Of a stretch of 26,164 bases of DNA, positions 15,001 through 18,000 are shown in pieces (the first letter of the stretch is position 1; each line of letters begins with the position of its first letter). Made by a program: the position numbers. The DNA is from Methanobacteriota archaeon. GTDB lineage: Archaea; Thermoplasmatota; Thermoplasmata; SG8-5; JAGLSY01. The DNA is taken from the NCBI GenBank assembly GCA_020697715.1, contig JAEHCO010000010.1, positions 1-26,164 on the forward strand, written 5' to 3'.

Positions 15001-18000
15001 ATGATCATGTGCATGTGAAGGATCACACGCATGTTCATGAGGAAGGCCAGGAACTGCATTTGGAAGGCGACTCTTGTATCAGCAAGTCCAGTAAAAAAGC
15101 AGAGCGAAAGAAGATGACCCCCTGGGTTCTTTTTGTCATATTCGTGCTCGGCCCCTGCGAACCACTCATACCGATCCTCATGTACCCAGCCGCCCAGAGC
15201 AGTGTCTGGGGAGTTGTAATGGTGGCTCTTGTTTTCGGTCTGGTCACGGTTCTGACCATGACCGGCATGGTACTCCTGGCCTTCGCCGGAATATCCTTCC
15301 TACCAATGGAAAAGATCGAGAGGTTCACACACGCCATTGCCGGCGGGACCATCGCCCTGAGCGGAATGGCCATTGTTTTCCTAGGGCTTTAACTAACTCT
15401 GGCAGGAGCCTGAGCCATGCTAACCCAGAGAAATAATTATTCCTCAATTTGGGAGATAGTATTTATTGTTTAAGGTCAATTCACTCTCATGAACACTATG
15501 AAAGCCATGTTCGGAGGAGGTTGCTTTTGGGGTATAGAAGAAGAATTCAGGAATGTCCCAGGAGTATTGGATACAAAAGTAGGTTATTCTGGAGGAGACA
15601 CCGAGAACCCCACATACAAAAAGGTCTGCAGCGGCATGACCGGCCACGCGGAAGTGGCTCTTGTCACCTATGATCCAGAAAAGGTGAGCTATGAGGAACT
15701 TCTCGATACCTTCTGGAACATACACGATCCAACAACTCTCAATTTGCAAGGCCCTGACATCGGCACACAATACCGTTCAGTAATATTTTATTTTGACGAT
15801 AGCCAGTTAGAAAAGGCGACCTTATCAAAAGATGATCTGCAACAAAGATCCAGCAGAGAGATCGTCACACAGATAAAACCAGCTGGCAAATTCTGGAAAG
15901 CGGAGGAATACCATCAACGCTACCGTCAGAAGGCCAGCTTCCCCGGATGTTGCACGGCATGAGCCAGGAAGATGAACTGCGCGAGCATGTGATGAGAAGA
16001 AAGGGTACTGAACCCCCTTTCTCTGGCAAGTACCTCGCGGAGAATCGCCCAGGCGTGTACAAATGCGCTGGCTGCGGTCATGAATTATTCTTATCAGATT
16101 CCAAGTTCGATTCGGGATGCGGCTGGCCGAGCTTCGACCGACCAGCAGATGAAAGCGCTGTCACGACCAAGCCAGACCTAAGCCACATGACGGTCAGAAC
16201 CGAAGTCATCTGTCCAAAGTGTGGAGGCCATCTTGGCCATGTTTTCAATGACGGGCCGACCGAGACAGGCAAGCGGTATTGCATTAACTCGGTGGCGCTG
16301 GATCTTAGGGCGAATGACTAGGCCTTCTTCCACTCCCAGGATTGGCTCGATATTGCTGCTGTCCAGATATGTAATGTTCCACAACCTCGAAGCCCTGGCC
16401 AACGCTCCCATGATAGCATCCAGGAGCCCACAGGGCTTTCGGACACCACTTGACGAGCTGCGGGTATTTCTTACGCAGCTCGCGACTTGAATTCGCCTTG
16501 ATGGCCTCCACGATCCTGCTGGTAGCCAGCTTGGGGGAATATTGAATGAACAAATGGACATGATCCTCAGCCACCGCCATTTCCAGTATCTTAACATCCA
16601 GCACCTTGCACGTCCATCGAATTTGCCTCTCACATTCGATGGCCACCCCGCCTTTCAGCACCTTGGCGCGATACTTCGGCGTAAGGACAACATGACATGC
16701 CATCATGCTCGTGGTATGCCGGTCCTTTCTTTCAGCGAACTTACTGCCAGTACCTTTTTTGTATCGGTGCTTCGAGTGCTGAGACGGGGCTTTTGCCATG
16801 GAACTGAGTATTCGATCGGTGGTATAAAAGGATGAATTGGGGGAGGGCGAAAGTATTTTGGGAATGGAGAGCCAGTGAACAAAATATAGTACTTTCGCTG
16901 ATCTGTGATGAGAGCTTATAAAGAAAGTCCGCATTTTTGTTGGGGTAATGCGGAAACCCTGGTAGCCGTTTGCCACGCTTGGCGAATGGCTGAAGACCTA
17001 CTGAACTCCCCAGGTCAAATCCATATATGCAACTCAGATAATAAATAGTTTCCTATGCCGAGGTAGCCAAGCCAGGAATGGCGGTTGGTTGAAGACCAAC
17101 TGGATCTCCCCAGGTCTTCGCGGGTTCAAATCCCGTCCTCGGCGGGGTTTCCACACAAGCCAGACTGACTGGGGCACGAGCAAAAGTCACGATCTGTATA
17201 GCACATACACATGGGCATACCCCGACCTTACCGAGGCTTGGTACAGGTACAAGCCTCGTCTGTAAGGACGGGGTATTTATATACACGTGTAGCTATACAT
17301 GTGTATCGTGACTTGCGAGGGAAGTGATTGAACACCAAAGGAGATGTGCCAGTTAAGAAATATATTATGTTTTCTGATTTACCTATTAGTGGATTTTATA
17401 AATTCGATGATGTATTCCAAATGATACCACCACCAGATGACTGGCCTAAACCAAGAGCAACTATAGGACACCATCCAATATTAATAGAATACAAAGACGA
17501 AATCGCTGTAGAATTAATTGATCTATTAAGTGTTTTTTCAAATTACTACTTCTTTCAATATTCTAATAACCAAGCTTGGTTTATAGATCTGGCCAATCAT
17601 AAAAATGACTCAGTATGGGGTCAAGAAGTCTATAAATCAGATATAGTGAATCAGATCGAATTCGAAAGTGAAGATTTTTCTAAACATGAAAAGGAAATTG
17701 ATTTTATTGAGCATAATGAGTATTTTAATACTTATGCTGGCCGTTTAAGAACAGACCCAATTAATTTTCCAGAATCCCTTTCAGATTTATACAGAAAATA
17801 CCTATCTTTAGATACAGAAAAAAGAAAAGCCTATCGAAATGCCAGTATTCTTTTCAAATCAGGATTGTTGTTAAAAGATGAAAGGATAAATTTAAGTCTA
17901 GCCTATGTATCATTTATTTCCTGTATTGAAACACTGATTTATTATGAACATAAAGATGAGGATATTGAACGGTGTAAACATTGTGGCCAGTTAAGATACA

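Follow-up and report, generated by a model that had tools for sequence, protein, structure and literature searches.

What does a cell do with a tRNA whose body and anticodon disagree? Natural tRNAs of this kind are rare, and they are the raw material of genetic-code change. We met the question in a 26,164-nucleotide stretch of archaeal DNA (contig JAEHCO010000010.1; hereafter, the window), where a class II tRNA gene with the anticodon of tRNA-Phe lies between a transposase gene and an array of small open reading frames. We know of no natural tRNA of canonical shape with such a mismatch described in archaea, and a literature search for canonical-shape mismatched archaeal tRNAs found none. The explanation that we tentatively favour is a serine-accepting missense tRNA, with decoding gated by two predicted folds.

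A serine-type tRNA gene with a phenylalanine anticodon

ARAGORN predicted a single tRNA in the window (17056-17145, forward strand, anticodon GAA), and Rfam family RF00005 matched the same gene at 17057-17144 with 55.1 bits (E-value 1.6e-9; gathering score 29). Read from the sequence, the gene (17057..17144, +) has an acceptor stem of 7 bp, a D arm, an anticodon stem of 5 bp with a 7-nt loop, a variable region of 19 nt with a 6-bp stem, a T stem of 5 bp and G73; CCA is not encoded. The 7-bp acceptor stem, the 5-bp T stem, the nucleotides of the D and T loops and a score above threshold are those expected of RF00005. With the covariation described below, these results bear out the survey's finding of a real class II tRNA with a 7/5 cloverleaf, a GAA anticodon and G73. 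Neither that geometry nor that anticodon is found in tRNA-Sec, which has the anticodon UCA and an extended acceptor/T branch.

The body of the molecule is of the serine type. Its acceptor stem and D arm resemble those of tRNA-Ser(CGA), which had already been named as its nearest canonical relative: 24 of positions 1-26 and all eight of positions 66-73 are identical to a tRNA-Ser(CGA) of the order, versus 18-20 of 26 and five of eight for the genome's own Leu tRNAs. A long variable arm was present in 20/20 aligned relatives, and G73, previously counted in 13 of 13 genes of the order, is now found in 14 of 14 and in 21 of the 22 genes overall with a known 3' end; one metagenome member has A73. 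G73 is among the tRNA-Ser identity rules given in PMC9976931. Only one SerRS N-terminal (arm) domain was matched in the genome, as expected from the earlier claim of a single SerRS (gene at C11:619273 onward), and the enzyme is of the bacterial type. From the long variable arm, G73, the Ser-like acceptor stem and D arm and the one SerRS, we can fairly infer that the family tRNA is charged by SerRS. The feature of tRNA-Ser that is missing is a serine anticodon (NGA or GCU), in place of which the gene has GAA and its relatives GAA, GAG or CAG.

Charging by LeuRS or PheRS would instead make the molecule an extra, harmless Leu or Phe isoacceptor, or limit its effect to a mild Phe-to-Leu change. 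The class II shape suits LeuRS, as do the GAG and CAG of relatives, both ordinary anticodons of tRNA-Leu. There is also a likeness to tRNA-Leu(GAG) in the T arm and at the 3' end of the variable arm, and the T arm of one member is identical to that of tRNA-Leu(GAG) at 17 of 17 positions. A GAA anticodon in a Phe-type loop is what PheRS would meet in tRNA-Phe, and all seven letters of the loop in the genome's tRNA-Phe recur in the anticodon loop of 11 of the order's 14 copies (the gene in the window has U32, versus C32 in tRNA-Phe). The single A73 member would be in keeping with either enzyme. However, the class I body and A73 of tRNA-Phe are replaced in the family by a long variable arm and G73, and the long variable arm of tRNA-Leu is here combined with G73 rather than A73. 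All four Leu tRNAs seen in the genome, like its tRNA-Phe, have A73, and G73 is reported in PMC9976931 as an antideterminant for archaeal LeuRS. The Ser-like acceptor stem and D arm also argue against LeuRS, while PheRS would give no account of the GAG and CAG members at equivalent loci. We consider charging by either enzyme improbable.

A canonical tRNA-Phe(GAA) had been reported in the same genome, and we found it at C11:472667-472739 as a class I tRNA of 73 nt with A73. Its presence bears on another explanation, in which UUY (or CUN) codons are reassigned to serine in these archaea. A serine-type tRNA with such an anticodon is what reassignment would need, and the yeast CUG clade has reassigned a codon by means of a serine-type tRNA. 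Reassignment is nevertheless hardly credible here, given the canonical tRNA-Phe, the ten of the 22 genomes of the order in which the family was not found, and the codon use of the window: Phe codons are abundant in its core genes (48 per 1000), and TTT is the codon for the Phe in the active-site motif of MsrA. The same codon use means that a Ser-charged GAA tRNA without any gate would be costly.

Members and conservation of the family

BLAST searches of the order recovered all 13 genes of the earlier count, in 11 of 22 genomes and with the same anticodon split of ten GAA, two GAG and one CAG. ARAGORN added a fourteenth gene (GAA) that adjoins a transposase gene in a twelfth genome, so the count now stands at 14 genes in 12 of 22 genomes. 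The anticodon differs between Phe- and Leu-codon types within one genus. Eight further distinct family genes were found outside this set of 14. Three of them come from two genomes whose titles name other archaeal phyla, and the family is therefore not confined to the order. The complete family sequences number 22. Each large collection was scanned once for an exact family pattern: the metagenome scan gave 20 matches, 12 of which were one conserved protein-coding sequence and were discarded, and the genome scan gave 16, six of which were discarded as non-tRNA. A collection of viral contigs gave no match to the pattern, which is weak evidence since the pattern was exact.

The cloverleaf is supported by covariation. 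For 13 sequences of the order and the four stems, with the variable arm left out, 97.1% of 273 cells were paired and nine of 21 pairs had changed on both sides; none of 500 shuffles matched this, and slid controls paired in 29-55% of cells. These values agree with those first reported (97.2% of 325 cells, 11 of 25 pairs), which took in the variable-arm pairs. The anticodon stem itself covaries at three of its five pairs, and each of the four stems has compensatory changes, seen in four families of the order as well as in the other phyla. The anticodon loop has exactly seven nucleotides, with R37 and A38, in every member; the T and D loops are intact; and G·U pairs are kept in the stems, such as 49-65 in 14 of 20 members.

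Two details of the earlier description have to be changed. Scores of 88 bits or more had been said to occur only in this order, but with our model members scored 80.0-102.5 bits and the best match outside the order 80.5 bits, so the score alone does not separate the family at its low end. The companion statement, that the best outside matches are Ser tRNAs, stands: the next-best matches were all canonical Ser tRNAs, and the 20 best matches from outside the order all had serine anticodons when checked. The insertion in the T loop, previously noted in one copy, is present in two, as homologous sequences of about 50 nt. Folding both insertions gave two hairpins and no recognisable bulge-helix-bulge splicing motif.

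A predicted anticodon-masking fold and a tRNA-like leader

The survey had suggested that the gene could be a serine-type misreader or serve another purpose, and mentioned that its anticodon can pair with the variable arm, with covariation at position 36. The serine features are real, and so is the pairing, which at position 36 is A-U in 16 and G-C in four of 20 sequences; in the gene in the window, positions 34-40 are complementary to the 3' strand of the variable arm. Rather than a side note, this pairing is one half of a full alternative fold without an anticodon stem: one helix joins positions 34-39 to the 3' strand of the variable arm, and the other is formed by 9-14 with 28-33.

The predicted minimum-free-energy structure was without an anticodon stem in 22 of 22 complete members. 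When the stem was forced to form, the median cost for the order's 14 genes was 5.1 kcal/mol, and for the eight others the cost was 2.7-13.1 kcal/mol. For comparison, 39 canonical class II tRNAs of the class gave a median of 0.0, with a penalty of zero or slightly negative in 31 and of at least 4 in two. Nearest-neighbour energies take no account of modifications or tertiary contacts, however, and slight deviations also occur in a quarter of the canonical tRNAs. RNAalifold predicted the helix between anticodon and variable arm, instead of the anticodon stem, even on an alignment fitted to the cloverleaf.

Covariation was also found for the masked fold, with 94.6% of 224 cells paired and five of 16 pairs changed on both sides (0/500 shuffles matched; slid controls paired in 20-42%), which rests on few independent events in related sequences. 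The pair 9-33 (n = 14) is A-U in nine, G-U in three and G-C in two sequences. C33 replaces the usual U33 in two copies of the order, both with G9, and likewise in a further metagenome copy; C33 was found only together with G9. In a divergent lineage, the helix 9-14/28-33 is kept with different letters and in a shifted register, and the other helix is lengthened to 9 bp. A helix of at least 5 bp between positions 8-16 and 26-33 can be formed by 18 of 20 family members versus three of the 39 canonical tRNAs. Helix II of the masked fold reaches at least 6 bp in 18 of 20 members and in none of the 39 canonical tRNAs, a comparison that is partly hand-derived and that we do not count as evidence. 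The canonical tRNA-Leu(UAG) of the class (three of the 39 controls) can likewise pair its anticodon with its variable arm over 5 bp, so inheritance, and not selection, could account for part of that helix. Since the alternative fold covaries, it appears to be selected and not a mere misfold. As read from the aligned sequences, the cloverleaf and the predicted masked fold are mutually exclusive, and both are kept by compensatory changes. A fold that covaries in its own right and leaves every one of the 22 complete members without an anticodon stem argues against a constitutively decoding tRNA.

Upstream of the gene lies a leader that copies the part of the tRNA hidden in the masked fold. Its tRNA-like half (16956..17016, +), which scores 14.6 bits with the family model (E-value 0.8), is a decayed copy of the 5' strand of the D arm, the anticodon arm and the variable arm, lacking the T arm and the 3' strand of the acceptor stem. 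It keeps the alternative helix and not the D stem, and its pseudo-anticodon, GAA, lies in a 4-nt bulge of the consensus fold. Of the 14 loci of the order, 13 have a pseudo-anticodon equal to the anticodon of the tRNA, as do all three loci outside the class. Before this half stands a first hairpin (16929..16953, +) with a stem of 6-7 bp, two pairs of which are changed on both sides in two other genomes. An AT-rich, TATA-like box precedes the hairpin as a conserved column block (16916..16923, +) and would be the leader's promoter; in another genome a second copy of the block precedes a PIN gene (repeat family D12). Another AT-rich box, 9-16 nt before the 5' end of the tRNA (17041..17048, +), resembles the boxes at about -22 to -8 before the canonical tRNA genes of the genome. 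An Rfam scan of 16200-19700 by E-value returned the tRNA and three sub-threshold, snoRNA-like chance matches, with the leader, the downstream hairpin and the repeats unmatched. All 14 copies of the order have the conserved leader ahead of them, with compensatory changes, and the leader probably has a part in folding or control.

A decayed partial copy directly upstream might suggest that the tRNA gene is itself a decaying, functionless duplicate that hitch-hikes beside a mobile element, and its patchy spread (12 of 22 genomes) and the position of the genes near contig ends and repeats could be read in the same way. Decay is very unlikely to have left compensatory changes in all four stems (in four families of the order and in other phyla), T and D loops that are intact, and a leader retained, with compensatory changes of its own, at every locus of the order.

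The gated missense tRNA that we tentatively favour would work as follows. A genuine tRNA, derived from tRNA-Ser(CGA), would have retained its serine identity set and carry the anticodon loop of tRNA-Phe, with the Leu anticodons GAG or CAG in place of GAA in relatives. By default it would adopt the masked fold. The two helices of that fold (9-14/28-33, and 34-39 with the 3' strand of the variable arm, the latter reaching position 42 in some members) would leave neither an anticodon stem nor a variable stem, and the anticodon and residue 33 would be buried. In the cloverleaf state it would be a substrate of the single bacterial-type SerRS and read UUY as serine, or CUY or CUG in the relatives, and the fold switch would restrict the amount of missense decoding. 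N1-methylation of purine 9 and G37 is a plausible trigger, since the Watson-Crick faces of both are used only in the masked fold. A search for the position-9 methyltransferase with Pfam PF01746 gave no match in the genome, with a model that detects bacterial controls only and not archaeal Trm10. The leader, a copy of the anticodon and variable arms, accompanies the gene and would probably act in folding or control. Transcription of the family tRNA, its serylation, the trigger and its use by the ribosome are steps that we infer.

Several observations count against such a two-state tRNA: C33 in three copies, T-loop insertions in two and A73 in one, all of which fit a non-decoding RNA at least as well. 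A change of anticodon between Phe and Leu codons within one genus would also be odd for a fixed decoding job. It is quite possible that the product is a tRNA-like RNA that delivers no amino acid to the ribosome, or that the gene acts as DNA. The tRNA shape could then be retained for processing, stability or recognition, and the RNA could be a regulator or a structural element, for instance one that mimics the anticodon arm of tRNA-Phe or tRNA-Leu and so binds a modification enzyme, a synthetase or a nuclease, or else a processing or punctuation signal. The masked fold speaks for this as the predicted ground state in 22 of 22 members, with its own covariation including the loss of U33, as does a leader that retains the alternative helix and a bulged pseudo-anticodon tracking the anticodon of the tRNA; the shifts among GAA, GAG and CAG and the two T-loop insertions agree with it. 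Against it stand the covariation of the anticodon stem at three of five pairs, the constant 7-nt loop and R37 and A38 throughout, which are needs of a decoding tRNA, and an element acting as single-stranded DNA is further disfavoured by the conserved G·U pairs, which point to RNA.

Genomic surroundings and comparison with known systems

A further non-decoding role would be that of a landmark that, in the order, heads a transposase-linked cassette array. The gene upstream of the tRNA, divergent from it (16305..16760, -), encodes an IS200/IS605-family Y1 (HUH) transposase (Pfam Y1_Tnp, 1e-28). It scores 116.3 bits with the NCBIfam model transpos_IS200 (cut-off 55) and 24 with the model for REP-associated transposases, below the cut-off of 80, and it aligns to the IS608 TnpA structures 2VHG and 2A6M (E-value 7e-18) with the HUH motif inside the alignment. 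The genome has one copy of this gene, and relatives have one to three each.

Downstream of the tRNA, a near-invariant 25-nt hairpin motif (17251..17275, +) lies inside a long palindrome (~17186-17312, read by eye). The hairpin adjoins transposase genes in several genomes, among them transposase genes without a tRNA, so it is probably part of the transposase system and not of the tRNA's. There are 25 copies in one genome and one to four in the others that have it, and no second element end was identified. After an AT-rich stretch, a conserved short box (17308..17315, +) precedes the first ORF of the array (17328..18224, +; 298 aa), which matched no family in Pfam, NCBIfam or PADLOC. The array itself (18219..22674, +) consists of GC-rich repeat segments (~18219-18565, 19229-19600, 19865-20528, 21184-21821 and 22328-22674), bounded by short inverted repeats as judged by eye and each followed by a small AT-rich ORF on the strand of the tRNA. 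The cassette ORFs of the window had no PADLOC match and no NCBIfam match above cut-off, and one sub-threshold match in Pfam (DUF4064).

The tRNA gene of the order usually lies between an IS200/IS605-type transposase gene and a repeat-separated cassette array. The transposase gene is at most about 2.2 kb upstream in nine of 13 loci, the hairpin is about 100-200 nt downstream in ten of 13, and the arrays after the tRNA gene include toxin-antitoxin genes. Each of these observations could favour a non-decoding element, all the more as bacterial allo-tRNAs, often near toxin-antitoxin or transposon-related genes, include some that have been suggested to be unused in translation (PMC5389517). The setting lends indirect support to an integration landmark, which is weakened by the ordinary chromosomal contexts, without transposase or hairpin, of two copies of the order and of the members in other phyla. 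Array heads without a tRNA, which occur in three genomes, likewise argue against a landmark and imply that the transposase system does not need the tRNA.

Some other candidates were set aside. No attachment-site duplicate was found around the tRNA: when 16901-17300 was compared with the whole genome by BLAST, the matches were all short and T-arm-like, and none was a direct repeat bounding an integrated element. At two metagenome loci a radical SAM gene lies 55 nt downstream of the tRNA; it matched no family above cut-off, which leaves a role as a wyosine or other tRNA-modification enzyme unsupported. An Rfam scan of twelve transposase loci with E-values up to 0.1 returned nothing and also missed a family member found by ARAGORN.

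A bolder proposal joins the tRNA to its surroundings: leader and serine-accepting tRNA would form a deliberately bistable module, used on demand for Phe/Leu-to-Ser missense by the cell or by an IS200-type cassette platform. Methylation at positions 9 and 37 would be one possible trigger, and the transposase gene, hairpin and cassette array would together be a single-strand-transposase analogue of an integron. We regard this as unlikely; if true, the genetic code would here be rewritten naturally and under regulation. The neighbourhood in the order (transposase gene, hairpin and cassette array) may be a separate find, on archaeal gene-cassette capture. Should the fold switch of the gated missense tRNA be real, it is an example of how cells in several archaeal phyla can retain a hazardous missense tRNA over very long periods, and it would also give a natural design for switchable orthogonal tRNAs.

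How do the locus and its tRNA compare with known systems? The neighbourhood alone resembles IS200/IS605 elements in its Y1 HUH transposase, homologous to IS608 TnpA, and its conserved hairpin, but the transposase gene has only one to three copies per genome. With integrons it shares a localised array of small co-oriented genes that are separated by repeats and include toxin-antitoxin genes. In contrast to integrons, no IntI-type tyrosine recombinase lies by the array: no integrase domain was found among the ORFs scanned in the window and 12 related loci. The cassettes here are known from sequence, with putative mobility. To our knowledge a tRNA is not part of either system, and a literature search for a tRNA within IS200/IS605 or integron systems found none.

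In CUG-clade yeasts a leucine codon is read by a serine-type tRNA, tRNA-Ser(CAG), in which an unusual residue replaces U33. The archaeal family is similar in its serine-type body with, in some members, a Leu-codon anticodon, and in its C33 copies. The yeast tRNA belongs to a fixed or ambiguous codon reassignment in a eukaryote, whereas the archaeal family is patchy, coexists with a canonical decoder and has a predicted masking fold.

Nematode nev-tRNAs are class II tRNAs with Gly or Ile anticodons on a Leu-specifying body (PMC4300185). They differ from the archaeal family in being eukaryotic and of leucine identity, and they are not known to have a leader or a second fold. Human mitochondrial tRNA-Lys offers a parallel for the switch, as it is in equilibrium between an extended hairpin and the L shape, shifted by N1-methylation (m1A9), and its position 9 is Watson-Crick paired only in the non-functional fold (PMC5372732). 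In that degenerate mitochondrial tRNA the misfold is a liability, whereas the alternative fold of the archaeal family covaries; the methyl group would play its part here by analogy.

A further likeness is to the bacterial allo-tRNAs of Mukai et al. 2017 (PMC5389517), which have serine identity and anticodons for many non-serine codons. Serine identity elements, a non-serine anticodon and proximity to toxin-antitoxin or transposon genes are shared by the archaeal family. As described in that source, allo-tRNAs have an acceptor/T geometry of 8/4 or 9/3 (12 bp), unlike the 7/5 geometry found here; the present family is archaeal, is limited to GAA, GAG and CAG and has a conserved masking fold and tRNA-like leader. 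What is new relative to the known cases is the combination of two mutually exclusive, conserved predicted folds, one of which hides the anticodon, with a leader that mimics the hidden part.

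The tRNA gene and its amino-acid identity

ARAGORN predicted a single tRNA with anticodon GAA at 17056-17145 (+) of the window, and the Rfam tRNA model matched 17057-17144 with 55.1 bits (gathering score 29). The gene at 17057-17144 (+) is real. Its acceptor stem has 7 bp and its T stem 5 bp, alongside a D arm, an anticodon arm (5-bp stem, 7-nt loop) and a variable region of 19 nt that contains a 6-bp stem. The discriminator base is G73, and CCA is left unencoded. An AT box lies immediately 5' of the gene and resembles the boxes preceding canonical tRNA genes in the same genome. 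The T-rich trailer of those canonical genes is missing here.

The host genome comprises 2.12 Mb in 34 contigs and is 93.8% complete. As the survey had stated, it contains an ordinary tRNA-Phe(GAA) as well, a 73-nt gene with A73. Its tRNA-Ser genes (UGA, GCU and GGA) all have G73, and its four tRNA-Leu genes all have A73. A tRNA-Ser(CGA) was not found in the host at this completeness, although it is present in relatives and is the closest match to the focal tRNA. That closeness, proposed in the survey, was confirmed: positions 1-26 agree with a tRNA-Ser(CGA) of the order at 24/26 and positions 66-73 at 8/8, against 18-20/26 and 5/8 for host Leu tRNAs. G73 was found in all 14 family genes of the order. 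A review describes G73 as a determinant of serine identity and reports that it blocks the LeuRS of Haloferax volcanii (PMC9976931). The host genome has one SerRS with an N-terminal arm domain, again in line with the survey. From the Ser-like acceptor and D arm, the rules for G73 and the single SerRS, we reasonably infer that the family tRNAs would be charged with serine. Some Leu-like character shows in the T arm and at the variable arm's 3' end; in one family member the T arm is identical to that of a tRNA-Leu(GAG) (17/17). The anticodon loop equals the host tRNA-Phe loop in all seven letters in 11 of the 14 order copies; the focal loop has U32 where tRNA-Phe has C32.

A BLAST search across the order's 22 genomes returned all 13 genes in 11 genomes counted by the survey (ten GAA, two GAG and one CAG). 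A fourteenth gene (GAA), spotted through a nearby transposase gene, raises the total to 14 genes in 12 genomes. Twelve of 22 is a lower bound, as these genomes are many-contig drafts with a completeness of 59-94%, in which the gene is found close to contig ends. Under a covariance model made from the 14 genes, the family scores 80.0-102.5 bits, and the best non-family match inside the order is tRNA-Ser(CGA) with 72.4 bits. Canonical Ser tRNAs made up ten and Leu tRNAs two of the 12 next-best loci examined. The survey had reported scores of 88 bits or more only in this order; in a class sample of 151 genomes, 18 of them from the order, the top match outside the order reached 80.5 bits, so score alone cannot part family from others at the low end. 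All 20 best outside-order matches examined had serine anticodons. The family cloverleaf is well supported, with 97.1% of 273 cells paired and both partners changed at 9 of 21 pairs, which none of 500 shuffles matched.

Codon reassignment is ruled out by the presence of a canonical tRNA-Phe, by the family's patchy distribution and by codon use: the MsrA active-site motif has its Phe encoded by TTT, and Phe codons number 48 per 1000 in core genes.

A predicted anticodon-masked fold and a conserved leader

The pairing of the anticodon with the variable arm, noticed in the survey, was recovered and proved to be half of a complete alternative structure. In this fold, the final six bases 5' of the T stem pair with positions 34-39, a second helix joins 9-14 to 28-33, and a separate small hairpin forms within the D loop; the anticodon, variable and D stems are abolished. 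The minimum-free-energy structure (ViennaRNA) lacks the anticodon stem in all 14 order genes. With an energy model that leaves out tertiary contacts and modifications, forcing this stem cost a median of 5.1 kcal/mol (range 1.1-10.0; ≥4 in 11/14), compared with a median of 0.0 for 39 controls, canonical tRNAs for Ser or Leu from the same class (zero or slightly negative in 31; ≥4 in two). Five base pairs of the same complementarity occur in canonical tRNA-Leu(UAG), accounting for three of these 39 controls.

Covariation in the alternative fold comes from few independent changes, with 94.6% of 224 cells paired and both partners changed at 5 of 16 pairs; none of 500 shuffles matched this, and slid controls paired at 20-42%. 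Pair 9-33 is A-U in nine, G-U in three and G-C in two of the 14 order genes. The two order copies in which C33 replaces the usual U33 both have G9, as does a metagenome copy with C33. For 20 sequences in a cloverleaf-model alignment, RNAalifold predicted the anticodon/variable-arm helix and displaced the anticodon stem; the pair at position 36 was A-U in 16 and G-C in four. Since the anticodon stem covaries too (3/5 pairs), both folds appear to be maintained. The compensatory changes rule out a pseudogene.

A conserved stretch of ~110-130 nt (longer in one copy) precedes all 14 order copies. Its successive parts are an AT-rich box, a hairpin in which two pairs are compensatory, and a decayed tRNA-like copy, the last located at 16956-17016 in the window (family model 14.6 bits, E 0.8). 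The decayed copy comprises the 5' strand of the D arm, the anticodon arm and the variable arm, while the T arm and the 3' acceptor strand are missing. The consensus fold of the leader keeps the alternative helix and places the pseudo-anticodon within a 4-nt bulge. This pseudo-anticodon is the same as the anticodon of the adjacent tRNA at 13 of the 14 order loci, including both GAG loci.

The reading that we tentatively prefer, a real possibility if short of probable, is a serine-accepting missense tRNA that is kept in the anticodon-masked fold and released only conditionally. Its main rival, only slightly less likely, is a non-decoding RNA that serves as a regulator or landmark in the shape of a tRNA. 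Such an RNA would account at least as well for the absence of U33 from three copies, for T-loop insertions lacking a recognisable splicing motif in two, for the anticodon drift among GAA, GAG and CAG, and for the shape of the leader. Under conditional missense decoding, the serine-accepting tRNA would be held with its anticodon buried. Purine 9 and G37 each form a Watson-Crick pair in the masked fold only; N1-methylation of either base would break its pair, and release would then allow serine missense decoding. We infer methylation at positions 9 and 37 as a possible trigger by analogy: an excerpt of one article gives m1A9 in human mitochondrial tRNA-Lys as a precedent and states that archaeal Trm10 enzymes make m1A9 and m1G9 (PMC5372732).

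Genomic surroundings and wider distribution

An IS200/IS605-family Y1 transposase ORF lies upstream of the tRNA at 16305-16760 (-), matching NCBIfam transpos_IS200 with 116.3 bits (cut-off 55) and IS608 TnpA structures with an E-value of 7e-18. Such genes occur in 16 of the 22 order genomes, with one to three per genome and a single copy in the host. They lie at most about 2.2 kb upstream of the tRNA at 9 of 13 order loci, and at one metagenome locus. Some 100-200 nt downstream of the tRNA, a 25-nt hairpin motif that hardly varies is found at 10 of 13 loci; in the window it occupies 17251-17275. The motif also adjoins tRNA-less transposase genes in three genomes, which argues that the hairpin is part of the transposase system. 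One genome of the order, G016, has 25 copies of a slightly different version over many contigs, compared with one to four in other motif-bearing genomes, as if a hairpin-bearing element had multiplied there. Among the 151 sampled class genomes, the motif was confined to the order (14/18 inside versus 0/133 outside).

Further downstream, at 18219-22674, is an array of five GC-rich repeat segments; behind each comes a small AT-rich ORF in the same orientation as the tRNA. The repeat is bounded by inverted repeats, and in the host genome it occurs only on this contig, one 4.9-kb contig, five tiny contigs and once elsewhere. In a better-assembled relative (locus L114, 1897-15950), the roughly 14 kb that immediately follow the tRNA contain up to 11 copies of one repeat family. 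Its ORFs are co-oriented and, between the array and the neighbouring leader copy, include four PIN genes, one ParE-like gene and one MazE-like gene, the latter two as weak matches. No integrase was found among the ORFs scanned in the window and related loci. Purely as a description, the layout in this order, with transposase gene and hairpin at the head of a localized array, is integron-like, with a single-strand HUH transposase as recombinase.

Elsewhere on the contig, 10543-11067 (-) encodes a Ras-family small GTPase (Pfam 1.4e-36), and the small protein encoded at 22957-23457 (-) matches arrestin-N weakly (1.7e-5). A 1265-aa beta-helix/NosD-repeat protein (1445-5242 (-)) adjoins an exosortase/archaeosortase-like membrane protein (5365-6612 (+)), and the pair could be a surface protein with the enzyme that sorts it.

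Beyond the order, we searched with an exact pattern from the family, so the wider distribution is a lower bound. Viral contigs gave no matches to this pattern. The 20 matches in metagenome contigs comprised eight family tRNAs (six new sequences) and 12 coincidences in coding sequence; the 16 in species genomes comprised seven in genomes already seen, six non-tRNA matches and three new genes in two genomes. These three are one GAA gene in a genome titled Hadarchaeota and two GAG genes, 1.1 kb apart, in one titled Halobacteriales. All have G73 and a leader with matching pseudo-anticodon, prefer the masked fold by 4.1-6.1 kcal/mol and have ordinary chromosomal neighbours, with the transposase absent. 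The conserved unit is thus leader plus tRNA, and the transposase link is peculiar to this order. One metagenome family member has A73. In a divergent metagenome lineage, both alternative helices persist with other letters, one reaching 9 bp, at a penalty of 9.6-13.1 kcal/mol.

At two loci of this divergent lineage, a radical SAM gene (L123 584-1570 (-) and L134 6973-7245 (+)) follows the tRNA, beginning 55 nt beyond it; NCBIfam and Pfam gave no families above cut-off for these genes. About 110 nt downstream of the Hadarchaeota member (L145, about 6710-6800 (+)) lies a further stretch with a tRNA-like 5' start and an acceptor-like 3' end, which ARAGORN did not predict as a tRNA. Downstream of the Halobacteriales two-gene locus (L136, about 3950-4060 (-)) is a third leader with a truncated tRNA-like start, which suggests tandem leader-plus-tRNA units in differing states of decay.

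Relation to known systems

The literature searched, which covered few subscription journals, yielded no account of an archaeal tRNA of this kind or of any tRNA linked with an IS200-type transposase or a cassette array. The closest known kind are bacterial allo-tRNAs. Their description gives serine identity, many non-serine anticodons and a defining 8/4 or 9/3 geometry, and reports that they often lie near toxin-antitoxin or transposon genes and that some are perhaps not translated (PMC5389517). The present family differs in lacking the 8/4 or 9/3 geometry and in being archaeal; its design with two folds and its leader are additional features. The complete alternative fold is the main new result.
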